A stretch of DNA of 64,000 nucleotides from an uncultured Kiloniellales bacterium. GTDB lineage: Bacteria; Actinomycetota; Acidimicrobiia; Spongiisociales; UBA5794. Of the stretch, positions 4,474 to 60,915 are shown piece after piece (position 1 is the first letter of the stretch; each line of letters starts with the position of its first letter). Location of the stretch: contig CAXMSN010000114.1 of assembly GCA_964196275.1 (NCBI GenBank), positions 2,674 through 66,673 on the forward strand, written 5' to 3'. Under the pieces are notes generated by a model. The model searched no databases. It was not told the DNA's origin and worked only from the letters and a program-made list of their open reading frames with translations. The position numbers and the translations under genes are program-made.

Positions 4474-6210
4474 CTACGGGGTCAACGCGACAAGACGTCG
4501 CTCCGCCTCGTCGCTTCGCCAGGTTCGGAACACCTTGCTCGCTGCTGAGGCAACGGCCCTCGATCCCGAGCCAAGTCCTCGCTCATCATCGATCGCAGAC
4601 GTCACCGCGTCCTGTAGATCCGAGGCGAACGCACTGCCTGAATCGGCTGCAGTATCGACGCCGAGCGAAGCGCCATACGCCTCAAACGACTCGCCGAAGC
4701 GATCTGTGAACCCTTCTTCGGGTATCCACGTCTCATCCGTTCGCAGGGCCTCCAGAGTTTCGTTCTGGAGATCTACAAGCGACCGTTTCACTGCTTTGAG
4801 AGCAGCGTTCTGTGCAGCAAGCGGACCCGACGGCTTGGCTGCGGCATCCTGATCGGACGTGGTCGGTACCACGTCCGCTAATTGCGGAGAACCAGCATCA
4901 TCCGCCTCAGGGGCGGAAGCGTTCGTTGGCTTTGGCTTTGGCTTCGGATTCGGATTCGGCTTGCTCGGTACGATGGGCTCGGATTGCGGCTCCGGTTCTG
5001 CGACGGGCTCCTCGTCCACCTCAGCGACCTCTGCCACGACAGTAGGTTGTTCGGTGGTGTCATCGCGAAGCTTCGCAAAGAGAGAGCTGATCTCATCCGC
5101 GGAGCCATCTGCGCTGTCGTTCACGGGCTGTGTCACGACCTCTGGAGCGACCGGTTCTGGCTCCTTCACGGGCTCGACGGCGATGACTTCGCGTAGTGGT
5201 GGCGGGGCGATCACAGCAACCGTCGCGACCTCTTCCTCCGTTGCGACCTCCTCCGCTGCAGCTTCCTTCGCTTTCGACATATTCGCCGAGCGGATCGCCT
5301 CGACATCTGCGACAAGCTCGTCCGTGTCGACCGGCTTGAGCACGACCACCTTCGACGGAGCAACGATCTTCACCGATCCGCTGTCGACCGAATGATGGGT
5401 GCGGGCATCAGGCTCCGGCTCAGGGACGGGATCCGGTGTCTCGAGCGCTTGCCGCCTGGAGTCGATCTCTTCCTCGAGTTGACTGATCGACGTCCGCGTT
5501 GCTTCAAGTTCTGACAACAGCTCCGACCGTCTGTCTTCAAGCGCACGAGCACGCTCCTGCGCTGCCTCAGCCTGCTTGTCGGCCGCGGCGAGGACACCAT
5601 CACTCTCAGTCCGAGCTTCCTCGATGATCGTGTCCGCATCGAGCCGTGCAACACGCAGAAGCTCTTCTTTGTCACGCTTGGCATCAGATGTGAGCCGCAG
5701 CGCGTCGCGCTCAGCCTCGGCACGCATGAACAGCGACTCCTCTTGTGCTGTCTCAAGAACGGAGTGCGACTCGGCCTCTGCCGATGTCAGCATGGACGTT
5801 CCTTCGTTCCATGCTGCCGCACGCATCGATTGGGATTGCTCGGTCGCAACTTCCACGGCCACCGTGGACTCGCGCTCTGCATCGGCTCGCCACACCTCGG
5901 CATCCTTTGCCGCCCTGGTCCGGAGGCCTTCAGCCGCCGCACGGGCTGCCTCAAGCACCGCTCCGACCTCGCCACCGACGTTCTTGAGTTCGTTCGCCAG
6001 CGCTTCTGGATCGTCGATCCCTATCGCTAGCGCGGAAGCTTTCGCCTCAACGACGCGGGCGGAGAGATCCTCAAGTTGGGACGCAACACCATCAAGAAAC
6101 GCATCGACCTCGGCGCGGTCGTATCCGCGCCGGATCATGTCGAAACGGCGCGCCCGTACCTGGTCCGGAGTCACATCATCGACCATGGCGGAAAGCGTAC
6201 CGGCAGGCAC
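4474..6210 (-). CDS. DivIVA-domain protein with long coiled-coil and low-complexity E/A/P-rich regions
   Basis: N-terminal DivIVA motif (VTPDQVRARRFDMIRRGYDRAEVDAFLDGVASQLE). The start could be the internal Met at 6186. Confidence 0.8.
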   Translation of the reverse strand: MPAGTLSAMVDDVTPDQVRARRFDMIRRGYDRAEVDAFLDGVASQLEDLSARVVEAKASALAIGIDDPEALANELKNVGGEVGAVLEAARAAAEGLRTRAAKDAEVWRADAERESTVAVEVATEQSQSMRAAAWNEGTSMLTSAEAESHSVLETAQEESLFMRAEAERDALRLTSDAKRDKEELLRVARLDADTIIEEARTESDGVLAAADKQAEAAQERARALEDRRSELLSELEATRTSISQLEEEIDSRRQALETPDPVPEPEPDARTHHSVDSGSVKIVAPSKVVVLKPVDTDELVADVEAIRSANMSKAKEAAAEEVATEEEVATVAVIAPPPLREVIAVEPVKEPEPVAPEVVTQPVNDSADGSADEISSLFAKLRDDTTEQPTVVAEVAEVDEEPVAEPEPQSEPIVPSKPNPNPKPKPKPTNASAPEADDAGSPQLADVVPTTSDQDAAAKPSGPLAAQNAALKAVKRSLVDLQNETLEALRTDETWIPEEGFTDRFGESFEAYGASLGVDTAADSGSAFASDLQDAVTSAIDDERGLGSGSRAVASAASKVFRTWRSDEAERRLVALTP

Positions 6211-8593: not shown

Positions 8594-8727
8594 CCGGCAG
8601 ACTGCGGGCGACGACGGAAGCCGGACGACCGACCCGCATCGCTACGCTCGCTGTCGGACCGCGCAGGTTCCGCGAACGGCCTACCGGGTCTCGGAATCCG
8701 TCGTCCGTCGGTCGCTTCGCTTCCTCG

Positions 8728-8776
8728 ATCCCCCTGGCTCGCTGACGCTCGCCCGTCCCCCTTGAAAGGGGGACGG
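8728..8776 (+). repeat. REP-like hairpin element, copy 1 (forward)
   Basis: atCCCCCTGGCTCGCTgaCGCTCGCCCGTCCCCCTTGAAAGGGGGACGG. 10-bp stem CCGTCCCCCT/AGGGGGACGG. Abuts the paaI stop codon. Confidence 0.85.
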
Positions 8777-8796
8777 AAATGGGAGTGGTCGGTCGC

Positions 8797-9195
8797 CTAC
8801 CGCTTGATAAACACGGTCCCGGTGAAGAGGGCCACCGTGCGGCCATCGTCTCTCGTCACGTCGACCCGGTATGTCGCGAGAGAGCGGCCCCGCGTCTGTT
8901 CGAACGCCGTCGCCGTCAGCGTGTCACCGATATCGGTCGGGGCTGTGATCGCGAGATGGGTATCGATTGCCACGGCGTCCTCGGGGTAGGCGTTGGACGC
9001 AAGCGCAAAGGCGCAGTCCGCGATCGAGAACACCACGCCCCCGTGCGTCCCTCCTAGGAAGTTCACATGGTCCTCACGAACCACCATCGTGACCGTGACC
9101 GATGGCTCGGCTACCTCCCGAAGAACCATCCCCTGTGAGGCGGCATACGGGTCAGCCGCAAACGACTCGGCGATCTTTGTGGCGCGGTCGAACAT
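8797..9195 (-). CDS. paaI: PaaI-family hotdog-fold thioesterase
   Basis: GGTHGGVVFSIADCAFALASN hotdog motif. I moved the start to Met 9195 because the 16 upstream codons are encoded by the REP hairpin and a heptamer remnant. Confidence 0.8.
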   Translation of the reverse strand: MFDRATKIAESFAADPYAASQGMVLREVAEPSVTVTMVVREDHVNFLGGTHGGVVFSIADCAFALASNAYPEDAVAIDTHLAITAPTDIGDTLTATAFEQTRGRSLATYRVDVTRDDGRTVALFTGTVFIKR

Positions 9196-9229
9196 CAGCG
9201 CAGAATAGACCACGGACCAGCATCCCGCT

Positions 9230-9280
9230 CGTCCTCCTTTCAAGGGGACGGCAGAGGAGCGCAGCGACGATGCAGGGGAT
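9230..9280 (-). repeat. REP-like hairpin element, copy 2 (reverse)
   Basis: CGTCCTCCTTTCAAGGGGACGGCAGAGGAGCGCAGCGACGATGCAGGGGAT. About 45 nt nearly identical to copy 4. Confidence 0.85.
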
Positions 9281-9313
9281 GTTGCAGGCTCAACGATTCA
9301 CCGGCGACCAACA

Positions 9314-9361
9314 CCCTCCTGACTCGCTTCGCTCGTCCGTCCTCCCTCGCAGGGAGGACGA
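9314..9361 (+). repeat. REP-like hairpin element, copy 3 (forward, compensated stem)
   Basis: CCTCCTGACTCGCTTCGCTCGTCCGTCCTCCCTCGCAGGGAGGACGA. The stem CGTCCTCCCT/AGGGAGGACG carries paired changes relative to copy 1. Confidence 0.8.
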
Positions 9362-9407
9362 GAGACAGCAGAACCGCCCTTCCGCTCCGTCGTCGGTCGT
9401 CGTCTTA

Positions 9408-10193
9408 TCAGAGCTCTAGCTCCTCGCCCAGATACGCCTTGATGACGTTGGGGTTGTCTTGGACTTCGGCTGGGGTGCCCTGGCCGATGACCTGTCCGAA
9501 ATCGAGGACCAGTACTCGGTCCGCGATATCCATGACGAGTCCCATGTCGTGCTCGACCAAGATCATCGCGATTCCGAGTTCCTGGCGGATGTCGAGGATG
9601 AACCGGGCCATGTCCTCGGTCTCTTCGAGGTTCATGCCTGCTACCGGCTCGTCGAGCAGCAAGAGTTCCGGGGCCATTGCCAGCGCTCTGCCGAGTTCAA
9701 CACGCTTCTGGATGCCGTACGGAAGCAGGCCTACCGGATATTTTCGCCATGCTTCAATCTCGAGCAGGTCGATGATGTCTTCGACCTTCTCACGGTTCTC
9801 CATCTCTTCCCGCTTGGCAGCGCCCCACCAGAGCGCACCTGAGAACCATCCACCTTCGGTCCTGACATGACGACCAAGCGTGATGTTCTCGAGAACCGTC
9901 ATGTGGGCGAACAGTTCGATGTTCTGGAAGGTTCGGGCGATTCCGAGAGCTGCGATCTTGTCAGGGCTCATCCCAAGGAGTGACTCCCCACGCCAACGGA
10001 TGTCACCCTCCTGTGGCTTGTACACACCATTGAGACAGTTGAACGTGGAGGTCTTCCCCGCACCGTTCGGGCCGATGACCGCAAACAGCTCACCTTCATC
10101 AACGGTGAACGACACATCCGTCAGCGCCTTGACGCCCTTGAACGCAAGCTCGATGCCCTCGAATTCGAGAAGTGGTGCTGTCATGAGAGCCAT
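9408..10193 (-). CDS. branched-chain/hydrophobic-substrate ABC transporter ATP-binding protein (LivG-like)
   Basis: Walker A GPNGAGKTS, signature and Walker B (LLLLDEPVAG), and a LivG-type C-terminal AYLGEE tail. Confidence 0.85.
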   Translation of the reverse strand: MALMTAPLLEFEGIELAFKGVKALTDVSFTVDEGELFAVIGPNGAGKTSTFNCLNGVYKPQEGDIRWRGESLLGMSPDKIAALGIARTFQNIELFAHMTVLENITLGRHVRTEGGWFSGALWWGAAKREEMENREKVEDIIDLLEIEAWRKYPVGLLPYGIQKRVELGRALAMAPELLLLDEPVAGMNLEETEDMARFILDIRQELGIAMILVEHDMGLVMDIADRVLVLDFGQVIGQGTPAEVQDNPNVIKAYLGEELEL

Positions 10194-18460: not shown

Positions 18461-18502
18461 AGTGGTCCTTTCGAGTCGTCCGACTCATCGTAATGGAGAC
18501 CA

Positions 18503-18554
18503 CGTCCTCCCTTCAGGGGGGACGGCAGAGGAGCGCAGCGACGATGCAGGGGGG
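18503..18554 (-). repeat. REP-like hairpin element, copy 4 (reverse)
   Basis: CGTCCTCCCTTCAGGGGGGACGGCAGAGGAGCGCAGCGACGATGCAGGGGGG. Confidence 0.85.
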
Positions 18555-18614
18555 CCTGCGAGCCCGCGAGCCCGGAGGAGCTGGAGAACTCGAGATCCGA
18601 AGTCCGATCGGCAA

Positions 18615-18655
18615 TCCACCTGGCTCGCTGCCCTCCCCCTTTGAAATGAGGACGG
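18615..18655 (+). repeat. REP-like hairpin element, copy 5 (forward, decayed and shortened)
   Basis: TCCACCTGGCTCGCTGCCCTCCCCCTTTGAAATGAGGACGG. Its tail GAAGATATGGGAACTCGGTCGTCGGTCC resembles the tail of copy 1. Confidence 0.65.
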
Positions 18656-18712
18656 AAGATATGGGAACTCGGTCGTCGGTCCTATCGTCAGAATGGTATC
18701 GAGGAGGTTCTG

Positions 18713-22197: not shown

Positions 22198-23664
22198 ATG
22201 CACAACGATACCCCCGGTGAGACACCCGACGAATCTCACGCTCCTCTCATGTCTGAGCGGAACGACAATGACGATGTCGGCGTTGAAGCAAGCATGGACA
22301 ACATCACACCACCGTCAGAATTCGACGCCGAGACCCCAGCACCGATCGTGCCCGAGCCGAACGATCCGATGGAGCCGATCATGCCCATCGACGCGGTCGA
22401 TCTTGAACCTGGTATCCAGACTGCCGAGTTCACCTACGATGAGATGCTCCCACCGCCACCGCCACCGCCACCGCCACCATCTGTCTTCTCCGGCTATGAA
22501 CCGCAAACGGTGACGGAGCCGGACACCGCGCCCGAACCGCCGAAACGATCGATCGGGCTGCTTCTTCTCGGCGTCGTCGGTGCGGCCGCTTTGGGTGCTG
22601 CCCTCACGATCGGTGTACTCGCGGTAACAGGCACCTTCGACGATGAGACGGCGGTCGTGCCCACAACGGTCGCGATCGCGGCTCCTGCGGAGCCAACGAG
22701 CACCGAACCGACGACTCCGATCGCCAGCACCGGCGTAGGCGTTGATCCGGCCGCGATTGCCGCCAAGGTGCTGCCCAGCATTGTCACAGTCGTTGTGTTC
22801 GAAGACGACGAAGCCGCAAACCCCTCCGGGTCCGGTTCGGGAGTTGTCATGTCCGACGATGGCTACATCATCACGAACCACCACGTCATCGAAGGCGCCA
22901 TGTCTTACGAAGTGACCTTCGAGGACGGCAGGGTCTACACGGCCGAGCTCGTGGGTAGCGACGATCTCACTGACATCGCCGTGCTCAGGATCTCGTCAGA
23001 CGACCTCACACCGGTTGCGTTCGGTTCGTCCGAGGTCCTCGATCTCGGCGATCCTTCGGTCGCGATCGGCAATCCTCTCGGTCAAGATGGCGGCGCGTCC
23101 ATCACCGCTGGCATCATCTCAGCGTTCAACAGAAGGGTCGACTTCGCCGATGAAACATCACTCTTCGGAATGATCCAGACGGACGCAGCCATCAACAGTG
23201 GATCCTCTGGCGGCGCACTTGTGAACGCAAACGGAGAACTGATCGGGATCACCTCGGCAATTGGCGTGTCGACTGCTGGACCAGAGGGCATCGGCTATGC
23301 GATACCCATCGAGGTCGTTGAACGCATCACCGCTGAGATCATCGAGACGGGGGACGTCGAGCATCCGTTCATCGGCGTGAGGATGCAGTCGTACTTCGAA
23401 ACGGCTGATGACGGAGCGGTCATCCCCGGAGGTGCGGTGATCGTGCTGATCGAGGAAGAGTCAGCGGCAGGAGACGCAGGCATGTTGCAGGACGACATTG
23501 TCATCGCCATCGACGGCAAGAAGGTCACAGGCCAATCCGATCTCGCCCTCGCCGTACGGCTCTACCGGGTCGGCGACGTCGTGACCTTCACCGTCTTGCG
23601 AGACGGGGAGACGTTCACGTTCGATGTGCTCATGGGCCAGCGCCCGGTCGAACTCCAGGGCTGA
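22198..23664 (+). CDS. htrA: HtrA/DegP-family trypsin-like serine protease with TM anchor, poly-Pro tract and C-terminal PDZ
   Basis: Catalytic triad context: ITNHHVIEG, DIAVLRI, NSGSSGGALVN. A PDZ-like C-terminus follows. Confidence 0.85.
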   Translation: MHNDTPGETPDESHAPLMSERNDNDDVGVEASMDNITPPSEFDAETPAPIVPEPNDPMEPIMPIDAVDLEPGIQTAEFTYDEMLPPPPPPPPPPSVFSGYEPQTVTEPDTAPEPPKRSIGLLLLGVVGAAALGAALTIGVLAVTGTFDDETAVVPTTVAIAAPAEPTSTEPTTPIASTGVGVDPAAIAAKVLPSIVTVVVFEDDEAANPSGSGSGVVMSDDGYIITNHHVIEGAMSYEVTFEDGRVYTAELVGSDDLTDIAVLRISSDDLTPVAFGSSEVLDLGDPSVAIGNPLGQDGGASITAGIISAFNRRVDFADETSLFGMIQTDAAINSGSSGGALVNANGELIGITSAIGVSTAGPEGIGYAIPIEVVERITAEIIETGDVEHPFIGVRMQSYFETADDGAVIPGGAVIVLIEEESAAGDAGMLQDDIVIAIDGKKVTGQSDLALAVRLYRVGDVVTFTVLRDGETFTFDVLMGQRPVELQG

Positions 23665-27336: not shown

Positions 27337-27391
27337 GTAGTACGTAGTACGTAATACGCACGCGTGGTCTGAGGTCTGAGGTCTAGGTCTA
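27337..27391. repeat. two adjacent heptamer tandem arrays: GTAGTAC x3 (27337-27357) and GGTCTGA x3.7 (27366-27391)
   Basis: gtagtacgtagtacgtaatac ... ggtctgaggtctgaggtctaggtcta, between the phoU-like stop and the acyl-CoA dehydrogenase start. Confidence 0.85.
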
Positions 27392-28605: not shown

Positions 28606-28687
28606 GTCAGAAGTCAGCGAGTGCGAGTCCGGTCTGATAGCGAGCGCAGCGAGTCGTGCCTGACTTCTGTCATCTGTCATCTGTCAG
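28606..28687. repeat. heptamer arrays GTCAGAA x2 (28606-28619) and CTGTCAT x3 (28667-28687) with REP-arm fragment AGCGAGCGCAGCGAG between them
   Basis: gtcagaagtcagcg ... cctgacttctgtcatctgtcatctgtcag. cagaagtcag and ctgacttctg form an inverted repeat. Confidence 0.8.
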
Positions 28688-28730
28688 CGAGCGCCAGCGA
28701 GCGGGTCTGGAGCGAGGCGGAGCCGAGCGA

Positions 28731-29669
28731 CTAGCCGAACAGGCGGTGCCACCAGTCTGCGAAGGTCGACCTCGCGTCTGGGGCTGGCAACTCGGCAAGC
28801 ACAGCGGTGGCGTGGTCCGGCGGGAGATCACCGACGATCACGAAGTGGTTCTCCGTGTCCGTCCAATGGATGCTCACGTCATATGCCGTGGTCACCAGGT
28901 CATACACGCCCGTGTCTGTGATGAGTGGCGTCGGAGATTCGAATCCTGTGACCGACGAGATATCTCCGAGCACAAAGAGAGAGAACGAGAAGAGGCCGTC
29001 GCTGTAGAAGCCCTGCTCGGAGTCGCCAGGTGCCTCGGATACGTCAACGAGCCGATAGCCGAAAATCACGTCCGGCAGACCGTCGGACGCACTCGGCATG
29101 ACGATGTCGTACTCGGCACCGCCTGTGCTGGATGGGCCAGAGTACGTGCGGTACGCCAAGAAGTTCTGAAGGCTCGAACGCCTGAACACCCGTCCATCAT
29201 CGGTGAAGGACTCTGTTATGAGGGGAGCACCCGTCCGGACGTCGACAAGGAGCCTTGCCCGAACCGCGTCTCCCTCCATGACGTTGACGAGTTCGCATGT
29301 GCGGCCCATGTGCGTCACTTGAGTGATACCGCCGACGACGTAGCGATCCGTGCTGATCGGTTCCGAGTTCGATACGAACGCGACACCGTGGGGCGCGTCA
29401 TCCATGGTCATCGCTGTGCCGTTGCCGATCATCGACCATGTGGAGTCGACCTGCACGATCTCCATGCCCTGGCTGTGCTCAACGAACGATGAAGAGATCT
29501 GCGTCTGGCCGCCCCACACCGAGACGACGAGCCTGTTCGCCGAATACGTCGATTGACTCGAACGCTCGAGATAGTCAGTGAGTTCGTCGGCAGACGCACC
29601 GGCTGCGGCAAGCGTCAGTGTGACTGCAGCAACGGAACCGATAACGGCGAGCCTGCGCAGTGTGGTCAT
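28731..29669 (-). CDS. secreted MucB/RseB-family protein (sigma-E regulatory protein B-like)
   Basis: Signal peptide. FYSDGLFSFSLFV and HFVIVGDLPPDHATAVLAELP closely resemble the E. coli RseB C-terminal motifs YSDGLFSFSVNV and IVGELPPQTA (recalled from memory). ATGA overlap with the anti-sigma gene. Confidence 0.7.
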   Translation of the reverse strand: MTTLRRLAVIGSVAAVTLTLAAAGASADELTDYLERSSQSTYSANRLVVSVWGGQTQISSSFVEHSQGMEIVQVDSTWSMIGNGTAMTMDDAPHGVAFVSNSEPISTDRYVVGGITQVTHMGRTCELVNVMEGDAVRARLLVDVRTGAPLITESFTDDGRVFRRSSLQNFLAYRTYSGPSSTGGAEYDIVMPSASDGLPDVIFGYRLVDVSEAPGDSEQGFYSDGLFSFSLFVLGDISSVTGFESPTPLITDTGVYDLVTTAYDVSIHWTDTENHFVIVGDLPPDHATAVLAELPAPDARSTFADWWHRLFG

Positions 29670-32007: not shown

Positions 32008-32172
32008 TGCCAGCTCCTTTTGTGACTACCTGAATTGTATCAAGCATGCGAGGTCTGACCGTTCGAAGCCCGTCGATTGAACCCGTCTATCGAGCTGAAG
32101 ACCACAGGTCACAATTCAGGCAGAGATCAGAAGTCAGATCGAGAAGCCGCGGATGACGGGCAATCGTCTTCT

Positions 32173-32200
32173 GGTCCGTGCTCCGTCGTCCGTGGTCCGC
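32173..32200. repeat. degenerate heptamer array (GGTCCGT-like x4)
   Basis: ggtccgt gctccgt cgtccgt ggtccgc, immediately downstream of the whiB stop. A second weak array, gatcaga agtcaga tcgagaa, lies at 32125-32146. Confidence 0.7.
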
Positions 32201-36113: not shown

Positions 36114-36138
36114 AGAGTCGCTCACTGGCGTTCGCTCC

Positions 36139-36152
36139 GGACCACGGACCAC
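36139..36152. repeat. heptamer array GGACCAC x2
   Basis: ggaccacggaccac, 26 nt after the sdhB stop. Confidence 0.6.
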
Positions 36153-37003: not shown

Positions 37004-37006
37004 CTC

Positions 37007-37090
37007 GGGCCACGGACCACGGACCAGAATGTCGCTTCTCGAAGATTGAACCCATCTTCCGATTTCCGATTTCGGACTTCGGACTTCCGA
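37007..37090. repeat. two heptamer arrays: GGACCAC-type x3 (37007-37027) and CTTCCGA/TTTCGGA-type x5 (37056-37090)
   Basis: gggccacggaccacggaccag ... cttccgatttccgatttcggacttcggacttccga, directly after the DUF427 gene stop. Confidence 0.85.
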
Positions 37091-37156
37091 CTCACCCTGA
37101 GCCTTGGTAGTTCGCGTCTCGGTACACTCCCAGCCACATAGTGAAAGGAACCTCCC

Positions 37157-37540: not shown

Positions 37541-37564
37541 CCGAGCCGCTCGCTGCGGTCGCCT

Positions 37565-37590
37565 ACAGACCTCAGACCTCAGACCTCAGG
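37565..37590. repeat. heptamer array ACAGACC/TCAGACC x3.5
   Basis: acagacctcagacctcagacctcagg, fused to REP copy 6. Confidence 0.85.
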
Positions 37591-37591
37591 A

Positions 37592-37637
37592 ATCCCCCTG
37601 GCTCGCTGTGCTCGCCCGTCCCCCTTGAAAGGGGGAC
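37592..37637 (+). repeat. REP-like hairpin element, copy 6 (forward)
   Basis: ATCCCCCTGGCTCGCTGTGCTCGCCCGTCCCCCTTGAAAGGGGGAC. Directly preceded by a TCAGACC heptamer array. Confidence 0.85.
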
Positions 37638-37651
37638 AGACTTTGAAAAGA

Positions 37652-37679
37652 AGAAAGGCGCCCGGGTGGGCGCCTTTCT
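37652..37679. terminator. bidirectional intrinsic terminator between the SCP2 gene and the HU gene
   Basis: AGAAAGGCGCCC-gggt-GGGCGCCTTTCT, a 12-bp stem. U-rich tail on the minus strand (ttcttttc) after the HU stop, and ttcgatt on the plus strand. Confidence 0.8.
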
Positions 37680-37699
37680 TCGATTGATTGCGGGAACGA

Positions 37700-40950: not shown

Positions 40951-40985
40951 GATCCGTGTTCCGTGGTCCGTAGTCCATGGTCCTC
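40951..40985. repeat. degenerate heptamer array (GGTCCGT-like x5)
   Basis: gatccgt gttccgt ggtccgt agtccat ggtcctc, between the icd stop and the methyltransferase start. Confidence 0.7.
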
Positions 40986-45225: not shown

Positions 45226-45359
45226 CGGAGCCAATTCTAGGATCGCGTTGGACAGTGCCGTTGGTCAGGTCCGATGCGAGCGGCGACGAGATTCGCACGA
45301 CGGAGCGCACACGAGTCCAATCGTTGGGCGAGCAGGATCTGAGCGAGGTATGCGCCGCT

Positions 45360-45400
45360 AGTCCGTGGTCCGTGGTCCGTGGTCCGTGGTCCGTGGTCTT
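45360..45400. repeat. heptamer array GGTCCGT x about 6 (reverse complement of the GGACCAC register)
   Basis: agtccgt ggtccgt ggtccgt ggtccgt ggtccgt ggtctt. This is the longest and cleanest array in the window. Confidence 0.95.
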
Positions 45401-45424
45401 GAGCGAGGCGGAGCCGAACGACAC

Positions 45425-46141: not shown

Positions 46142-46202
46142 CGCATACACAGAACTTATGTCCCTTCCTTCGCTCGCCACTCGCCACTGCCCGCTCAATG
46201 CC

Positions 46203-46250
46203 GTACCCAGGGTTCCCAGCCACATATTCGTGGCTGGGAACCCTGGGTAC
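46203..46250. terminator. 21-bp perfect palindrome (hairpin) just downstream of sucD
   Basis: GTACCCAGGGTTCCCAGCCAC-atattc-GTGGCTGGGAACCCTGGGTAC. A T-run follows only on the plus strand (gcgTTTTgg). Confidence 0.5.
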
Positions 46251-46259
46251 GCGTTTTGG

Positions 46260-49771: not shown

Positions 49772-51979
49772 TTACGAGACCTTCTCTAGCGGTGCCCACG
49801 CGAGAAGGAGACGTTTCACGCCGGGGCCATCGAACGCTACGACGGCTTCGGCACGGTCACCGATGCCGACGATGTCGCGCACCGTGCCCTCTCCCCAATG
49901 GGTGTGCTTGACGCGGTCACCTGGCTCGATCTCGGAGTCCGATACGGTGCTCACCGGTGATCGTGCTTCCATCGTTGCGCTTCGGCGTACGCGCTTTGCC
50001 TTCTTCACCAGATGTTCGGGGATCTCCGACAGGAACCGGCTCGGGCCGTTGAAGTTGTTCTGGCCCCAGAGATTCCGACTCCACGCACGGGTGAGATACA
50101 GATTCTCCTCGGCCCTCGTCAGGCCGACGTAGCAAAGTCTCCGCTCCTCCTCGAGTTCCTTGGGATCGCCGAGGGCGCGCATGTGCGGGAACACGCCGTC
50201 CTCGAGGCCCGTAAGGAACACCACGGGATACTCAAGGCCTTTTGCGTTGTGGAGTGTCATCAGCGTCACAGCGTCGTCCGATGTCCTCGAATCGGCGTCT
50301 GCCACAAGGCTGATCGCCTCAAGGAACATCTCGAGCTTCCCGGTGCCGTCGAGGGCGTTCCAATCACTGGGACCCATCGATGCTGGCCCGGTCTCCTCGA
50401 ACTCGCCAGCAGCAGTCAACAGTTCCTTGAGGTTCTCTTCCCTGCCCATCGCTTCGATCGACCGCTCCGCACGGATCATGTCCATGTACCCGGTGTCGTT
50501 CAGGACCGAGTCGACGGCAGCGGCAGGACCGAGCGCGGCCTTGGTGGCGATCACGTCTGTCAGCGCGACGAACTCAAGGATCGACTTCTGGGCCCGGGGT
50601 GTGAGTTGGTCGATCTCATCGGCCCTCCGAAGCGCATCGGCGAACCCGATGCCGTTGTTCTGTGCGAAACGGTCGACATGGGCGACGCTCGTATCACCGA
50701 TCTTCCGGCTGGGTACGTTGATGATCCGCTTCACCGCAACCTGATCGTCAGGGTTCACGACGGCTCGCATATAGGCGAGAGCATCCTTGACCTCTTTGCG
50801 GTCGTAGTACTTGAGCCCACCGACAACTTGATAGTGCGTGCCGAAACGGACGAAGAGTTCCTCGATCACTCTCGACTGAGCATTGGTCCGATAGAACACA
50901 GCGACGTCGCTGAGACGCTTCCCATCGTCCTCCAGCCTGGCGATCTCCTCTGCGATGTACGCAGCCTCCTCGTGCTCATCCTCACCCTCGAAGAGGACGA
51001 TCTGCTCACCGGCTCCCTCGTCGGTCCAGAGCTTCTTCGGTTGCCGTTCCGTGTTGTTGACGATCACGGAGTTCGCCGCGTCGAGGATCGTCTGCGTTGA
51101 CCGATAGTTCTGCTCGAGCAGGATCAGCCTCGCATCCGGATAGTCCTTCTCGAAGGCCATGATGTTCCGCATATCGGCACCTCGGAACGCATAGATCGAC
51201 TGATCCGAGTCTCCGACGACACAGACGTTCTTGTGCCTGTCCGCAAGGAGCTTCACGAGCATGTACTGGGCGTGGTTCGTGTCCTGGTACTCGTCAACGA
51301 GGATGTACCGGAACTGCGTCTGCCACCGATCGAGAACCGCAGGGAAAGCCTGGAGCAGCTCGACGGTGAGGGTCAGGATGTCATCGAAGTCGACCGCCGA
51401 AGCCTCAACCAGACGCTGCTGGTAGAGGCGGTACACGTCGGCGACTTGCTCGTGGTAGTAGCCATCGCCTCCTGCAGCGAAGGACTCGTAATCGATGAGC
51501 TCGTTCTTGGCCTTCGAGATCGTTCCCTTGATCTGTCTCGGTGGGAAACGCTTCGTGTCCATATCGAGGTCCTTCATCACCATCGTGATAAGCCGTGTCG
51601 AATCGGCATCGTCGTAGATCGAGAACGAACCGCGATACCCGAGGCGATGGATCTCCTGTCGGAGGATCCGGACGCACGACGAGTGGAAGGTGGACACCCA
51701 CATGCTGCGTGCAACACCACCGACGAGTTGCCCAACACGCTCCTTCATCTCGCCCGCAGCCTTGTTTGTGAACGTGATGGCGAGAATGTCGTACGGAGAG
51801 ACACCAAGGTCGCGGATGAGGTGTGCGATCCGGTACGTCAGCACCCGCGTTTTACCAGATCCGGCGCCCGCGATCACCAGAACTGGCCCTTCGGTGGCGG
51901 CAACGGCCTCGCGTTGAGTCGGATTAAGGTGCTCAAAGAGCGGGGATTCGGTCACCCAATCGAGTGTACCGAACAGCAC
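49772..51979 (-). CDS. pcrA: ATP-dependent DNA helicase PcrA/UvrD (SF1)
   Basis: LNPTQREAV, AGAGSGKT (Walker A), VDEYQDTN, and TLHNAKGLE/VGLTRA motifs. The start may be GTG 51955 instead of 51979. Confidence 0.9.
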   Translation of the reverse strand: MLFGTLDWVTESPLFEHLNPTQREAVAATEGPVLVIAGAGSGKTRVLTYRIAHLIRDLGVSPYDILAITFTNKAAGEMKERVGQLVGGVARSMWVSTFHSSCVRILRQEIHRLGYRGSFSIYDDADSTRLITMVMKDLDMDTKRFPPRQIKGTISKAKNELIDYESFAAGGDGYYHEQVADVYRLYQQRLVEASAVDFDDILTLTVELLQAFPAVLDRWQTQFRYILVDEYQDTNHAQYMLVKLLADRHKNVCVVGDSDQSIYAFRGADMRNIMAFEKDYPDARLILLEQNYRSTQTILDAANSVIVNNTERQPKKLWTDEGAGEQIVLFEGEDEHEEAAYIAEEIARLEDDGKRLSDVAVFYRTNAQSRVIEELFVRFGTHYQVVGGLKYYDRKEVKDALAYMRAVVNPDDQVAVKRIINVPSRKIGDTSVAHVDRFAQNNGIGFADALRRADEIDQLTPRAQKSILEFVALTDVIATKAALGPAAAVDSVLNDTGYMDMIRAERSIEAMGREENLKELLTAAGEFEETGPASMGPSDWNALDGTGKLEMFLEAISLVADADSRTSDDAVTLMTLHNAKGLEYPVVFLTGLEDGVFPHMRALGDPKELEEERRLCYVGLTRAEENLYLTRAWSRNLWGQNNFNGPSRFLSEIPEHLVKKAKRVRRSATMEARSPVSTVSDSEIEPGDRVKHTHWGEGTVRDIVGIGDRAEAVVAFDGPGVKRLLLAWAPLEKVS

Positions 51980-51980
51980 G

Positions 51981-51994
51981 GACCACGGACCACG
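51981..51994. repeat. heptamer array GACCACG x2
   Basis: gaccacggaccacg, between the Rieske stop and the pcrA start. Confidence 0.6.
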
Positions 51995-52015
51995 GGGTCG
52001 GGAAAGGCCGCTGAT

Positions 52016-52436: not shown

Positions 52437-55064
52437 TCATGTTCGTTTCTGGAAGCAATCCGGCCAGAAACCCAAGGTCAGGCATGACAGAGAGCGCAGA
52501 GCTTCGCGGCGGCAACGGAGTACAGCAAGCCGGCCAGCCTCGGCCGGACGTGACCCGTTCGCCCAACACCCTCCAGGCTCGCTACGCTCGCCCGTCCTCC
52601 CTCTCAGGGAGAACAGATCGCCGGACCACTTCGTCCGCTTCCGGTCTGTGGTCTGTGGTCTGTTGTCTTCCGCTTCGATCAGGTCTCTCAGGGTCTCCAC
52701 CAATGCTCCCTTGGCAAAATCAGACTTGTCGAAGAAGGCGTTGGCGCCAGCACGCTCGGCACGTTCGCGGTCCGCGTCGGATGCCACGCCAGAGAGCATG
52801 ACGATTGGGATCTTCCCGTATCGCTGCCGCACCATGTGGACGAGCGCAACGCCATCAGCGCGCGGCATCGAGAAGTCGACGACCAGTGCGTCGGCTTCGA
52901 AATCTCCGAGCAGGCCCAGAGCCTCTGCAACGCTTCCTGCCGACATCGTCGCGAATCCGTGCGATGCAAGCACGCCAGAAACCACTTGCCGCACACCTTG
53001 GGAATCATCAACGACCAGAACCGTGTGCACGGCTGCAGAACCTCTGCCGTCATCGCCTCGCAGGTTCTCGGCCAGCCTGCTCGCGTTCACGAGAAGAACG
53101 GTGTCATCACCACCGAGCAGGGCAACACCCGAGACGACCGAAGCACCAGAGAGAAGCGGTCCGAGGTCTTTCGTCGCGACTTCATGAACGTCCAGAACCT
53201 TGTCAACCGAGAGGGCGATCGTCCCGGTCTGGCTCTGGATCACCATCACCTCTGACGGGAGTCCCTCGATCTCAAGCCCTGCCACCGTCGCGAACGAAGC
53301 GTACGGGATCGATTCTCCGCCATGGCTGATCGTGCTGCCCCGGCCGGAAACTTCGATCTCTACATCGCGGACCGAGAGGACCTCCGTAACCGCCGATTGT
53401 GGAATGCCCCATGACCGCCCTCCTGCCAGGAACAACCTGGCAGGCTGTAACGCCCTGTGAGCAGGCAGCGTCACCGTGAAGGCGGTTCCGTCGGATGACG
53501 TTGCCATCGTGATCGTGCCGTACGCCTCCTCGACCGCTCTCGTAACTGCGGCGAGCCCGTCGCCGTCCCGAACGAATTCGGACGATCGAGGGTTTGTCGA
53601 GAAACCAGGAGAGAAGAGAACTGACCTGAGGTCCTCCGACGAAGGGTCGCCCTCAAGCATCTGGGTCCCGACTGCGGTCTCACGCACAGCAGTCCAATCG
53701 ATCCCACCCCCATCGTCAGTGACAACCAGCGTGATGTGCTGGTCGTCCTTACCCATCGCGACGGAGACAGTCCCTGTCGATGGCTTGCCACCGCTGGCTC
53801 GTTCAGCGGGTGCCTCGATACCGTGAACCACTGCGTTGACGATGAGCTGCCGGATGATCTCTCCGATCCGATCGACCAGCTGACGGTCGACGATCGTTTC
53901 TTGACCTTCGACAACGAGTTCGACGGACTTCTCCGTCTTCTTCGACACGTACTTCAGCAGTTGCGGCAGCGTTGCAGCGAATCCGTCCAGGGAGACCATC
54001 GTGAGATTGAGTGCGTTCTCTTGCAGGTCTACGGCTGCCCTACGCACGGTCTCAAGTGACTCTATGGCGCTGTCAACGGCCGGAACCGTCTGCGAGCCAC
54101 CCGATCGCAGCACCTGCAGGGCGAGACTCGTGACAGACTCGACATCGATACGAAGCGCTGCGACATCGTTGATCAGCCTGAACAGGCGCCCTGCGTTTAC
54201 GGGAACCGACTCTTCCGCCGCCCATGTCTCCACGACCCCTACGAGTCCGCCGAGTCCGGATGGCGGGACCGCATCAGGGTCGAGAACGGACCTCTGCGGC
54301 TCAAGGTACGAAAGGTCGACACTCAGTTCACTTCGGGCGGTCGCGGTCGGCTCATCGGGCTGTGGACGATGAGTCGACACCGCGGCCGCCTCAGTTCCGC
54401 CTGCGAAGGCAGATCTGATGATCTCTGGGGTAACGACATTCGAGGACAGCTTTCCGTCGGCATCGGGTTCGAACACGAGGGGATCCGCAGCGACGACATC
54501 GGAGCCGCCTTCGTCGGCATCTGATGCGGAGGCCACATCCTCGGTAGGTGCGACGGCAGGAGAGGTATCGGGCGCACCGTCCTCGTCACTGGCGGGGTCC
54601 TGTGACACACTGGGCTCTGCGGTTTCTTCGGCAGGGGACGGGTCGTCTGGTTCGTCTTCATCAATCGGCTCAGGCAGCTCCTTAACCATCGATGGATCTG
54701 CGATGAGCGTTCGCAGCGTGTCGATCGCCCCTGACACAGCGACCGCCGAGCCTCCGATTGCATCAGGCAGAGCGTCCGCGAGATGGGTAAGTGCCCTGCC
54801 CAGAAGTGGTGTCGGTGCAAGGTCACCATGCTGGATCCAGCGCCAGATCACCTCACAGGCCTCTCCACCCCTGGCGATGAGCTCGTGGCCCATGACACGT
54901 CCTGTGCCCTTGATCGTGTGGCCCTCACGCACCATCGTGCTTGCCAGTTCAGGGGTGACCGTGCCTTCGATGATCGAAGACGCGCCCGTTCGGAGACTCT
55001 CCGCACGTTCGGTCAGTTCCTCACGGAAGAGGGTGTCGAGATCTGGATTGTTTGTCACAGCCAT
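52437..55064 (-). CDS. CheA-like hybrid histidine kinase (Hpt - acidic linker - HATPase - CheW-like - receiver)
   Basis: Hpt HTIKGTG. ATPase N/G boxes (NAVVHGIE, DDGGGID). CheW-like segment. Receiver VLVVDDS...DFSMPRADG...K. The last ~80 codons are encoded by repeat DNA (see findings). Confidence 0.8.
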   Translation of the reverse strand: MAVTNNPDLDTLFREELTERAESLRTGASSIIEGTVTPELASTMVREGHTIKGTGRVMGHELIARGGEACEVIWRWIQHGDLAPTPLLGRALTHLADALPDAIGGSAVAVSGAIDTLRTLIADPSMVKELPEPIDEDEPDDPSPAEETAEPSVSQDPASDEDGAPDTSPAVAPTEDVASASDADEGGSDVVAADPLVFEPDADGKLSSNVVTPEIIRSAFAGGTEAAAVSTHRPQPDEPTATARSELSVDLSYLEPQRSVLDPDAVPPSGLGGLVGVVETWAAEESVPVNAGRLFRLINDVAALRIDVESVTSLALQVLRSGGSQTVPAVDSAIESLETVRRAAVDLQENALNLTMVSLDGFAATLPQLLKYVSKKTEKSVELVVEGQETIVDRQLVDRIGEIIRQLIVNAVVHGIEAPAERASGGKPSTGTVSVAMGKDDQHITLVVTDDGGGIDWTAVRETAVGTQMLEGDPSSEDLRSVLFSPGFSTNPRSSEFVRDGDGLAAVTRAVEEAYGTITMATSSDGTAFTVTLPAHRALQPARLFLAGGRSWGIPQSAVTEVLSVRDVEIEVSGRGSTISHGGESIPYASFATVAGLEIEGLPSEVMVIQSQTGTIALSVDKVLDVHEVATKDLGPLLSGASVVSGVALLGGDDTVLLVNASRLAENLRGDDGRGSAAVHTVLVVDDSQGVRQVVSGVLASHGFATMSAGSVAEALGLLGDFEADALVVDFSMPRADGVALVHMVRQRYGKIPIVMLSGVASDADRERAERAGANAFFDKSDFAKGALVETLRDLIEAEDNRPQTTDRKRTKWSGDLFSLRGRTGERSEPGGCWANGSRPAEAGRLAVLRCRREALRSLSCLTLGFWPDCFQKRT
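52568..52614 (+). repeat. REP-like hairpin element, copy 7 (forward, decayed stem), inside the 3' tail of the CheA-like ORF
   Basis: ACCCTCCAGGCTCGCTACGCTCGCCCGTCCTCCCTCTCAGGGAGAAC. Confidence 0.75.
52643..52670. repeat. heptamer array GGTCTGT x4
   Basis: ggtctgt ggtctgt ggtctgt tgtcttc. Lies where the receiver domain of the CheA-like ORF ends. Confidence 0.85.
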
Positions 55065-58956: not shown

Positions 58957-59002
58957 GACGTGCTCCTCGTACGACCAACCGTAAGCGCCGACGGTAGTAG
59001 CT

Positions 59003-59051
59003 GAAGACAACAGACCACAGACCAGCAGAGGACTACGGACCACGGACCAGC
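59003..59051. repeat. mixed heptamer array x7 (ACAGACC x2 ... GACCACG x2)
   Basis: gaagaca acagacc acagacc agcagag gactacg gaccacg gaccagc. Confidence 0.8.
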
Positions 59052-59059
59052 ATTGGCTC

Positions 59060-59106
59060 CGTCCCCCTTTCAAGGGGGACGGTCGAGCGCAGCGAGCCAG
59101 GGGGAT
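59060..59106 (-). repeat. REP-like hairpin element, copy 8 (reverse)
   Basis: CGTCCCCCTTTCAAGGGGGACGGTCGAGCGCAGCGAGCCAGGGGGAT. Flanked on both sides by heptamer arrays. Confidence 0.85.
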
Positions 59107-59112
59107 GTCTGG

Positions 59113-59147
59113 TCGGACTTCGGATTTCGGACTTCCGACTTCGGATC
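59113..59147. repeat. heptamer array TCGGACT-type x5
   Basis: tcggact tcggatt tcggact tccgact tcggatc. Same unit family as 37056-37090. Confidence 0.85.
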
Positions 59148-59166
59148 TCTTCTGTACTGTGTGGCG

Positions 59167-60915
59167 ATGGATGGCTCTACGCGGCGACTGGCTGCGATCT
59201 TGGTTACGGACGTTGTCGGGTACTCGGCGCTGATGGCTGAGGACGAAGCTGGCACCCTCGCCGCCCTCTTGGCGCATCGGAACGCCACCGACCCTGTCAT
59301 CTTGAATCATGGGGGGCGGATCGTGAAGTCCACCGGCGACGGCGTACTCGTTGAGTTCGCATCGGCCACCGCAGCGGTCTCAGCGGCGTCGCAGGTACAA
59401 GAGTTGATGCTGGAACGAAACGCAGAACTGCCGGAGTCTCGACGGATGCTCGTGCGTCTCGGAATCAACCTTGACGAGATAGTGGTGGATGACACAGGCG
59501 ACATCTTCGGCGACGGTGTCAACGTCGCGGCGAGGGTGGAGACGCTCTCCGACCCTGGCGGCATCGCTGTTACGAACGCCGTCTACGAAGCGGTGAGAGG
59601 AAAGACGGAGGCTGAATTCACCGACGATGGTGAGCACGATCTCAAGAACATCCCTCGGCCGGTGCGGGTGTGGAAGACCCTGGGCACACCGACGGCGGAG
59701 ACCTCATCGGATCCGGTTCGGCGAACACTCGCCACTGTTGCCGTGCTGCCGTTCGACAACATGAGCGATGACGCTGCGCAGGAGTATTTCTCAGACGGCA
59801 TCACCGAGGACCTCATCACGGCGCTTTCCTACGATGCGTACCTGGCCGTGGTCGCCCGGAACTCGACGTTTGCGTACAAGGGACACTCCAGGGACATCCG
59901 AACCATCGCACGCGAACTCGATGCGACGCACGTCATCGAAGGCAGCGTCCGAAAATCGGGTAGCCGAATCAGGGTGACGGCGCAGCTCATCGACGCCGAG
60001 ACTGGCCATCACGTCTGGGCTGAACGGTACGACCGGGAACTACACGACATCTTCGACGTCCAGGATGAACTGGTTGACGCGATCAGAGCCAGACTCACAC
60101 CGGCACTGTGGGAGACGGCTGGGCGCCGGAGATCCACAGGCGACATCGGCTCCTTCGACGCATGGGATCTGACGATACGCGGACAGTTCGAGGCAAATCG
60201 GTACACGATCGAGGGACTCCTCGCCGGAATCGAGTTCTTCGACAGTGCCAAAGCGCTCGATCCAACATTTGCAGAGGCCTTCGCATACTCAGCCAGAGCC
60301 TGGTTCTTCCTCGCGTTCTTTGGCTGGCGCGACGACACCGTCAACCCCTGGCACCGTGGCGGGGAAGACGCTGAACTCGCCTACGCACTTGCGAGCGACA
60401 ACTACCAGACGTTGGGCGCGATGACGCTGGCGACGGGCTTGGCAGGAGATGTCGATGAAGCCAAGCGACTGGCCCACAGGATGGTCGAACTCAACCCGCT
60501 CGGTTATCTCGGCTTCCACGTGTTGGGAGCGATCTTGGCAGGAGAAGGCAGGCTGGACGAAGCCGTCGAGGCGTCCACGAACGCGTGGAGGCTCGGCCGC
60601 CACGAACCTTTGCGTTTCGACACAGCGAGCGACCTCGGCTATGCCCATTACCTCCTCGGCAGTTACGAGGCGGCCGTGGCGTGGGGAAGGCAGTCCGTCG
60701 ATCTTGTACCCGACTACCTGCAATCGAACATGCTGTTGGCTCTGGCGTATGCACAGCTCGGACGGACAGAAGAGGGGCAGCGACACGTCGACAACATGCT
60801 CGCTTCGAGGCCGGGCTTCAGTTGTGCGAAGCAACGCACACGTTGGGTGTACCGACGCGAACAGGATCGTGACCTCCTCACCGATGGCCTGATCAAGGCG
60901 GGTCTACCTGAGTAA
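59167..60915 (+). CDS. class III adenylate/guanylate cyclase fused to a TolB-like linker and TPR domain
   Basis: AAILVTDVVGYSALM, KSTGDGVLVEF, GDGVNVAARVE. The C-terminal half is TPR-like. Start set at Met 59167, downstream of the repeat block. Confidence 0.8.
   Translation: MDGSTRRLAAILVTDVVGYSALMAEDEAGTLAALLAHRNATDPVILNHGGRIVKSTGDGVLVEFASATAAVSAASQVQELMLERNAELPESRRMLVRLGINLDEIVVDDTGDIFGDGVNVAARVETLSDPGGIAVTNAVYEAVRGKTEAEFTDDGEHDLKNIPRPVRVWKTLGTPTAETSSDPVRRTLATVAVLPFDNMSDDAAQEYFSDGITEDLITALSYDAYLAVVARNSTFAYKGHSRDIRTIARELDATHVIEGSVRKSGSRIRVTAQLIDAETGHHVWAERYDRELHDIFDVQDELVDAIRARLTPALWETAGRRRSTGDIGSFDAWDLTIRGQFEANRYTIEGLLAGIEFFDSAKALDPTFAEAFAYSARAWFFLAFFGWRDDTVNPWHRGGEDAELAYALASDNYQTLGAMTLATGLAGDVDEAKRLAHRMVELNPLGYLGFHVLGAILAGEGRLDEAVEASTNAWRLGRHEPLRFDTASDLGYAHYLLGSYEAAVAWGRQSVDLVPDYLQSNMLLALAYAQLGRTEEGQRHVDNMLASRPGFSCAKQRTRWVYRREQDRDLLTDGLIKAGLPE

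Follow-up and report, generated by a model that had tools for sequence, protein, structure and literature searches.

Why should the spacers of a bacterial genome harbour short tandem arrays with a period of exactly 7 nt, and what produces and keeps them there? The question is raised by a 64-kb stretch of DNA (hereafter the window) from contig CAXMSN010000114.1 of an uncultured member of the Acidimicrobiia, and in particular by one array of this kind, located 25 nt past the stop codon of a MDMPI_N/DinB-like gene and 125 nt ahead of purN (hereafter the focal array; Table 1). The arrays are heptanucleotide simple-sequence repeats (SSRs; microsatellites, or "long SSRs"). They form one lineage-specific family, built on the unit ACGGACC and its derivatives ACAGACC, TCAGACC and TCGGACT/TCCGAAG, and they grow, shrink and homogenise in 7-nt steps. 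They add one lineage to the heptanucleotide SSR families already described in cyanobacteria, Xanthomonas, Beggiatoaceae and Geobacter.

Arrays were detected with Tandem Repeats Finder and with a scan for exact self-match runs (at least two copies plus 3 nt), and were placed on a gene map made of codon-usage-scored open reading frames (ORFs) corrected with Pfam, in which intergenic DNA accounts for 6.7% of the window. About 16-18 period-7 arrays are found. They range from 14 to 40 nt in length and occupy the 3' tail of cheA and 13 of the 36 spacers that measure 25 nt or more. This is in agreement with the first-pass annotation of this DNA, which had reported exact 7-nt arrays in at least 12 spacers. 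All the arrays that it had listed are recovered by Tandem Repeats Finder except the one at 28606-19 (GTCAGAA GTCAGCG), a marginal case with fewer than two clean copies, and three weak two-copy arrays come in addition to them. The program delimits the recovered arrays at 27337-58, 27366-90, 28666-86, 32172-99, 36138-52, 37006-26, 37056-92, 37566-89, 40953-83, 45361-98, 51977-95, 52643-68, 59005-29, 59030-49 and 59113-45. The gene map also bears out that the arrays lie outside genes, apart from the one in the tail of the CheA-like ORF (52643-70); a few touch uncertain start codons (51979, 9213 and ~59043).

The enrichment is specific to period 7 and to spacers. Over the whole window, the exact-run scan detects 10 arrays of period 7, and 0-4 for each of the periods 5, 6 and 8-12. 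The 4,232 nt of intergenic DNA contain 8 exact period-7 arrays, whereas 200 shuffles of the same DNA that preserve dinucleotides contain 0.005 on average, and the 59,868 nt of coding DNA contain a single one, so that the arrays are far more frequent in spacers than in either shuffled or coding sequence. By the same scan, period 7 is the only one of the periods 4 to 12 to be enriched in the spacers of the window, and coding DNA contains period-6 and period-12 arrays instead of period-7 ones. An exact, head-to-tail 7-nt period beyond chance is thus combined with a mostly non-coding location, which is seen in the window and also among related Acidimicrobiia, where 34 of 42 period-7 arrays (~81%) are non-coding; both are properties of heptanucleotide long SSRs.

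Two hexamer arrays were noticed inside genes, CCACCG x4.8 and GGCTTC x5.8, at 22450-22478 and 4928-4962, which look like an in-frame counterpart to the intergenic heptamers.

The units of the arrays are closely related to each other. Of 16 arrays, seven belong exactly to the class of ACGGACC (GGTCCGT, GGACCAC and GACCACG being members of it), two are one substitution away (ACAGACC) and five are two substitutions away; 9 of the 16 are thus within one substitution of ACGGACC, as against a 2.8% chance for a random heptamer. The resemblance extends beyond the units: 52649-74 and 58999-59024 are 96% complementary, including identical degenerate units, 9190-9247 matches 59020-59077, 28704-26 matches 45395-417 (GGTCTGGAGCGAGGCGGAGCCGA), and the stop codons of whiB and icd both run into GCAG[A/C]GGACC (junction TGAGCAG[A/C]GGACC). 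As flanks and degenerate variants are common to different loci, the arrays are copies by descent and not independent births, and the earlier proposal of one diverging family rather than independent microsatellites is sustained on both counts. In terms of an SSR life cycle, the array at 45360 is perfect and those at 40951 and 32172 are decayed. The ACGGACC unit is open in all six frames, and the units carry at most GG, short of the runs of at least three G found in G-quadruplex (G4) heptamers of the GGGNATC type.

Changes by whole units are seen directly when the window is compared with its relatives. These are distant in the GTDB species set, in which PurN is at most 69% identical to anything and the best matches are all from metagenome-assembled genomes (MAGs) of Acidimicrobiia; no exact-protein match was found for the purN product, with two choices of start, or for the icd product. 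Closer sequences come from other assemblies: (i) an NCBI MAG contig (GCA_964196555.1, CAXMUF010000019.1), 99.84% identical over 20 kb without a gap, (ii) a contig from the Joint Genome Institute (JGI), L244, 99.5% identical over 2,935 nt, (iii) a Logan contig, L254, 100% identical over 1,150 nt, and (iv) a contig of metagenome assembly GCA_003359175.1, L200, syntenic with the window at ~91% identity. The sole gap in the L244 alignment is one extra ACAGACC unit in the cheA-tail array. At the focal array, L254 has 3 units vs 5 in the window, a difference that is located at a contig end and is hence weaker evidence. The same spacers hold arrays in L200, and nearly every array is altered, with copy numbers (in the order of the comparison) of 3.5 against 4.5 for TGAGGTC and of 2.5 against 5, with added GTCTGT units, for GGTCCGT; TCCGAAG units are gained or lost, and neighbouring modules also differ. 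In the focal spacer, the ACGGACC x5 of the window is replaced in L200 by ACAGACA x3, which is a concerted change. The array-free spacers sdhC-whiB and orf314-sigma are 97-99% identical to those of L200, without any indel. Whole-unit copy-number change, another property of heptanucleotide long SSRs, is therefore observed among strains and relatives (one more unit in L244, two fewer in L254 and several changes in L200), as anticipated when slipped-strand length variation was first suggested for these arrays. Metagenome scans for further alleles of the focal locus gave no match.

One of these changes rewrites a protein end. The cheA-REC ORF (52437-52700 region) reads through the heptamer array and, antisense, through a copy of a hairpin element described below (core G), and extends 75 residues past the REC domain. 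The extra unit of L244 shifts the frame of this tail, which measures 31 residues from the array start, vs 75 in the window. The C-terminal tail of CheA is thus repeat-encoded and frame-polymorphic. In all, the arrays sit in low-constraint DNA, that is to say past stop codons, in convergent or divergent spacers and, in one case, in a C-terminal tail that is dispensable.

As repeats assemble poorly and the window is itself metagenome-assembled, the arrays could have been an assembly or sequencing artefact, a concern raised with their first description. The arrays are however shorter than reads and are present in the ~91%-identical orthologous genome. Moreover, they recur in NCBI MAG GCA_964196555.1, in JGI 3300060904 and 3300060880 and in Logan ERR13301388/9, and identical arrays in independent assemblies are not assembly artefacts; this explanation is effectively refuted.

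The arrays fit into a known class of repeats. Heptanucleotides are the most abundant class of long SSRs in most prokaryotic genomes (Mrazek 2007, as reported in PMC4679880 and PMC4692102), and slippage is their proposed cause, according to the same two papers. Like the long SSRs of Mrazek, Guo & Shah (2007), as these are described in PMC4679880 and PMC4692102, the arrays of the window show an exact 7-nt period, an excess specific to period 7, a strong intergenic bias, a scattered distribution that includes Actinobacteria, and copy changes of the slippage type. The 2007 work, as far as it is relayed there, is of a statistical kind and names no Acidimicrobiia family, whereas in the window one unit family, ACGGACC and its derivatives, dominates and is interleaved with a hairpin element and with GCGAGC-rich modules. 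The ten genomes richest in 5-11-nt repeats are reported to include three Actinobacteria (Mrazek 2007, via PMC4679880), and the first-pass statement that no equivalent was known in Actinobacteria was thus too strong. Our literature search yielded no description of a heptamer family in Acidimicrobiia or of these exact sequences.

The short tandemly repeated repetitive sequences STRR1-3 have the units CCCCAGT, TTGGTCA and CAACAGT. STRR sequences of heterocystous cyanobacteria and the GGGGA(T/C)T repeats of Nostoc (PMC4692102) resemble the arrays in that few heptamer units occur in tandem at many intergenic loci per genome, but lineage and units differ, and the arrays of the window are short (2-6 copies) and devoid of G4 potential. 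The analogy with STRR drawn at the outset is therefore sound as to the way in which the arrays work, not as to membership: the units are ACGGACC, ACAGACC, TCAGACC and TCGGACT, and the host belongs to the Acidimicrobiia. The GGGAATC repeats of Xanthomonas (PMC4692102) and the TAACTGA repeats of marine Beggiatoaceae, cyanobacteria and Bacteroidetes (PMC4679880) are similar in several respects: a genome-specific heptamer recurs at intergenic sites that number from tens to hundreds, its length and sequence vary at the same locus among close relatives, and one unit can occur in distant phyla. TAACTGA, however, is mostly located immediately ahead of start codons and contains stop codons, and GGGAATC can form G4 structures, whereas ACGGACC is open in six frames, is found mostly past stop codons and follows no orientation rule. 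In Geobacter metallireducens (PMC2700814), GGACCGG x4 at 49 sites is a GGACC-containing unit two substitutions off (compare GGACCAC), and MTYCTGA x5 is a TCAGRAK-like unit, both in ~4-5 tandem copies at many loci; these families differ in belonging to a deltaproteobacterium, in occurring within genes too and in being annotated, without test, as putative regulatory elements.

These data lead us to consider as probable that the arrays are slippage-driven heptanucleotide microsatellites which have spread with a mosaic of hairpin-bearing modules, are kept out of genes, and call for no sequence-specific function. Slipped-strand mispairing, which the pattern of change fits, would add or remove whole 7-nt units. 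Many of the arrays would be modules of an extragenic mosaic made of a hairpin and of GCGAGC-rich arms, and their shared flanks suggest that they are copied between spacers together with neighbouring modules, which could explain how one unit recurs at many loci. As 7 is not a multiple of 3, each step would shift the reading frame and arrays would be excluded from coding DNA; they would persist in the least constrained DNA, directly past stop codons. Effects on neighbours, such as the variable CheA tail or an altered spacing between stop codon, hairpin and next start, would be by-products, and a sequence-specific function would be unnecessary to explain the arrays.

Several observations weigh against this explanation. 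Slippage alone accounts neither for period 7 being preferred over 5, 8 or 10, nor for the frequent start of arrays 0-45 nt from a stop codon. That arrays have stayed in their spacers at ~9% divergence could also mean selection. The arrays are not hypermutable, as ~12 of them are unaltered in L199 (99.84% identity to the window) and ~6 do not differ when L202 is compared with L200 (99.7%). Finally, about half of the window arrays have no hairpin core within 500 nt, and it is from short shared flanks that dispersal with the mosaic is deduced.

The hairpin in question is a 46-nt element (ATCCCCCTGGCTCGCnnGCTCGCCCGTCCCCCTTGAAAGGGGGAC) resembling repetitive extragenic palindromic (REP) sequences and their doublets (REPINs), present in 8 copies (cores A to H) in array-bearing spacers of the window. 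Like REP/REPIN sequences, it is a short imperfect palindrome with many extragenic copies and forms inverted doublets capable of making a long hairpin (B/C and D/E, with many more in other MAGs). At least 7 other Acidimicrobiia MAGs, with a PurN only 65-69% identical, carry it in nearly invariant form, often arranged in tandem clusters or in REPIN-like doublets; nhmmer gave 120 matches to the core in Acidimicrobiia loci. Its subfamilies differ by compensatory stem changes (GTCCCCC/GGGGGAC vs GTCCTCCCT/AGGGAGGAC). Compared with shuffles, the doublets show no better folding (z -0.64 and -1.34), the 9223-9366 region has a weak score against a long-hairpin (miRNA precursor) model, and Rfam 15 gave no gathering-score match in the window, the matches of 8600-9420 by E-value being only at chance level (E ~1). 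REP families are usually species-specific. The core is similar to REP/REPIN sequences and bacterial interspersed mosaic elements (PMC3116915) in being multi-copy, extragenic and palindromic, in its inverted doublets and tandem clusters and in its mosaics with short motifs; unlike REP, it has no GTAG-type 5' motif and is conserved across a whole class, and no REP-associated tyrosine transposase (RAYT) was found in the 7 ORFs beside core clusters. The heptamer arrays themselves are not palindromes.

The arrays could also belong to a mobile REP/REPIN-like element or be a by-product of it, namely ends, linkers or footprints made or carried by a RAYT-like or other transposase and not by replication slippage. 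Arrays flank 6 of the 8 cores (B, E, F, G and H, and in degenerate form A), with identical junctions in two pairs and in a fixed arrangement: relative to core orientation, TCAGACC or TCCGAAG arrays are directly upstream and GGTCCGT arrays, plus GGTCTGT at G and H, downstream. The inverted doublets B/C and D/E are REPIN-like, cores of other MAGs (L224, L229) run into different heptamer arrays, and short-read contigs break at cores. However, half of the window arrays have no nearby core. The loci of other MAGs that were seeded on the core contain 11 period-7 arrays, of which only 3 come within 150 nt of one, and their period-7 density is below that of the window. The words of the heptamer family, compared to see whether the window units might derive from REP linkers of other MAGs, show an enrichment of just 2-fold in the core flanks of these MAGs, among copies that are not independent. 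The 7 neighbouring ORFs contain no Y1_Tnp or other transposase, and the changes seen are whole-unit gains or losses within arrays, as slippage predicts. The link between heptamers and hairpin is loose, and an origin of the arrays in a mobile element appears unlikely, though by no means negligible. One further possibility, which we hold to be improbable, is that array and class-wide hairpin form one functional mosaic, in which the array would be a spacer adjustable in 7-nt steps between stop or start codon and hairpin and would serve to tune the processing of 3' ends, the termination of translation or the read-through into the gene that follows, or that a dedicated hairpin-acting enzyme writes the arrays; such an enzyme, if real, would account for the preference for period 7.

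Three other features of the mosaic were observed. First, GCGAGC-rich modules (GAGCGAGGCGGAGCCGARCGAC, relatives of GAGCGCAGCGAC) lie between stop codons and arrays in several spacers, with similar motifs at 28620-28700, 36120-36137 and 37544-37564; they resemble an arm of the REP-like element. Second, Logan contigs L203, L245, L246, L248 and L254 end inside REP-like cores or the focal array, which is consistent with a high genomic copy number. Third, REP-like cores flank an adenylate-cyclase/TPR gene both in the window (59161-60915) and in a distant MAG (L216:5025-6836 of MFD03804.bin.1.229), which may be a coincidence or a conserved cis element.

A role at the RNA level was the first function to be proposed for the arrays, on the grounds that their C-rich, G-poor version is on the sense strand after stop codons, as would suit 3'-end formation or Rho loading. 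In the window, 8 of 11 stop codons are indeed followed by an array whose sense strand is richer in C than in G (C>G), a bias that is not significant and that does not extend to the relatives: among arrays of other Acidimicrobiia located within 200 nt past a stop, 9 are C>G, 13 C<G and 4 equal. Three arrays of the window have the opposite orientation and are adjacent to the start codon of the following gene; two of the spacers with arrays are divergent (5'). In other phyla, ACGGACC arrays of co-directional spacers are sense in 12 cases vs antisense in 10, with 19 more in divergent and 15 in convergent spacers, on crude gene calls; our home-made gene caller placed 49 of 127 ACGGACC arrays of these foreign high-GC loci in called ORFs, which probably reflects the fact that this unit is open in all six frames. 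The absence of an orientation rule speaks against a role at the transcript level, such as Rho loading.

Rho utilization (rut) sites measure roughly 60-80 nt. At 14-40 nt the arrays are shorter and, their orientation being inconsistent, they do not make up a C-rich, G-poor, unstructured sense tract downstream of genes. The explanation would nevertheless be that an unstructured (ACNGACC)n, C>G, loads Rho or an RNA-binding protein with a footprint of ~7 nt (for example of the cold-shock-domain type), and so sets transcript ends or stabilises the 3' untranslated region. The start of arrays 0-45 nt past stops, their persistence in the orthologous spacers of L200 and the idea, raised in PMC4679880, of a link between cold-shock proteins and heptamers are in its favour, as is folding: array RNAs are unstructured, though not more so than shuffles, and fold no better than these (z -2.3 to +1.4; focal array +1.4). 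Single-strand folding of composite spacers gives only a small hairpin (z -0.6 to -2.1). A terminator and promoter scan of 27-46 kb is also compatible with it, as terminator-like sites are not above shuffles and none is at arrays. The orientation counts and array lengths, together with the swapping of unit sequences between close relatives, nonetheless make this explanation distinctly unlikely, and an orientation-dependent RNA role such as Rho loading finds no support in the present sequence comparison.

The arrays beside start codons (27391, 51979, 9213) and in the divergent trpS-cyclase region might suggest instead regulation at the DNA level, either by tandem sites for a regulator or nucleoid protein or by a tuning of promoter spacing as in phase variation. 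Precedents are the tandem heptanucleotides of Geobacter metallireducens annotated as putative global regulatory elements (PMC2700814) and the heptamer repeats which, according to a Nostoc preprint, affect recF/recO expression. Most arrays are however at 3' ends and not at promoters, the promoter-proximal parts of spacers are conserved in L200 while the arrays vary, several different units are in use, and the neighbours are housekeeping genes without a common theme. Unlike phase-variation contingency loci, in which an SSR at the promoter or in the 5' coding part switches a surface or antigen gene on and off, the arrays lie past the stops of these genes, and the sole coding case alters a post-domain C-terminal tail. 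We consider this explanation very improbable.

Period-7 arrays also occur well beyond the window. In 1.16 Mb of purN-seeded loci, not all of which are from Acidimicrobiia, there are 38 arrays of period 7 vs none of period 8, and the related Acidimicrobiia have period-7 arrays with other, genome-specific units. The sequence (GGTCCGT)x4 itself is found at more than 118 loci in many phyla, and at several loci per genome in Haloferula sargassicola and in Rubricoccaceae, Acidobacteria and Chloroflexia MAGs; these loci contain 212 further period-7 arrays vs 28 of period 8. A rough extrapolation from the density of arrays in unbiased loci predicts hundreds to thousands of matches for any heptamer class, and the GGTCCGT loci are therefore not taken as evidence that this unit is special.

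Bacterial spacers have been known since 2007 to contain an excess of 7-nt tandem repeats, and the window adds the Acidimicrobiia to the lineages concerned. The value of the locus lies in a clear single-unit family, in strain-level gain and loss of whole units, including a rewritten protein C-terminal tail, and in the physical link of the arrays to a class-conserved REP-like hairpin. Arrays and hairpins are break points of short-read assemblies of these genomes and could serve as strain-typing markers.

Table 1. Coordinates of the period-7 arrays, REP-like cores and GCGAGC-rich module of the window (TRF, Tandem Repeats Finder; new, absent from the first-pass annotation).
Feature	Position	Strand	Remarks
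Focal array, ACGGACC x5.4 exact (~6 with degenerate ends)	45359-45400	- (sense)	TRF 45361-45398, unit GTCCGTG, score 76
Degenerate ACGGACC array, ~4.4-5 units	40951-40985	-	Fills icd-methyltransferase spacer; starts 4-6 nt past icd TGA; junction TGAGCAGAGGACC
Degenerate ACGGACC array x4	32172-32200	-	Starts 4 nt past whiB TGA; junction TGAGCAGCGGACC
GGACCAC x2.1 (ACGGACC class)	36138-36152	+	25 nt past sdhB stop
GGACCAC x3 (ACGGACC class)	37006-37027	+	3 nt past DUF427 stop; L200: 5 units + GTCTGT units
TTCCGAT/TTCGGAC x5.3	37056-37092	+	Array type recurs at 59113-59147
TCAGACC x3.4	37565-37590	+	Past SCP2 stop; abuts REP-like core F; L200 +1 unit
GTAGTAC x3.1	27337-27358	+	phoU-acd spacer; TRF
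TCAGACC class (GGTCTGA x3.7 on +)	27366-27391	-	Ends 12 nt before acyl-CoA dehydrogenase ATG; G-rich version is sense
GACAGAT (CTGTCAT x3 on +)	28666-28687	-	Convergent spacer; marginal GTCAGAA x2 at 28606-19
CACGGAC x2.7 (ACGGACC class)	51977-51995	+	Between Rieske stop and uvrD/pcrA start; G-rich version is sense
ACAGACC x3.7, sense strand	52643-52670	-	3' tail of cheA-REC ORF, directly past REC domain; polymorphic: +1 unit in L244
AGACAAC/AGACCAC x3.4, then GGACTAC GGACCAC GGACCAG	59003-59052	+	Divergent trpS-cyclase spacer; TRF 59005-29, 59030-49
TCGGACT x4.7	59113-59147	+	Other side of REP-like core H; TRF 59113-45
AGACCAC GGACCAG (2 units)	9207-9220	+	Beside REP-like core B; arrangement as at 59030-59077; new
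ATCCGAAGTCCGATCGG (TCCGAAG type, ~2 units)	18595-18611	+	Directly upstream of core E; new
TCCGTCG x2	8698-8711		New
REP-like core A	8728-8777	+	
REP-like core B	9222-9285	-	
REP-like core C	9311-9362	+	
REP-like core D	18497-18556	-	
REP-like core E	18614-18660	+	
REP-like hairpin core F	37592-37640	+	ATCCCCCTGGCTCGCTGTGCTCGCCCGTCCCCCTTGAAAGGGGGAC
REP-like core G	52568-52618	+	
REP-like core H	59058-59106	-	
GCGAGC-rich module, GGTCT(T/G)GAGCGAGGCGGAGCCGA(A/G)CGAC	45395-45420	+	Flanks focal array; second copy 28704-28731

Two further palindromic features were noted in the window. Between SCP2 and HU, at 37648-37680, is a canonical bidirectional terminator hairpin (GGCGCCC-ACCC-GGGCGCC) with T/A tracts, conserved in L200, and ordinary intrinsic terminators thus exist in this genome. 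A perfect inverted repeat of 22 nt, whose arms (CGTACCCAGGGTTCCCAGCCAC / GTGGCTGGGAACCCTGGGTACG) are separated by a 6-nt loop, is found at 46202-46251, at the 5' end of the DinB-like gene and within or next to the short spacer between this gene and that for succinyl-CoA ligase.

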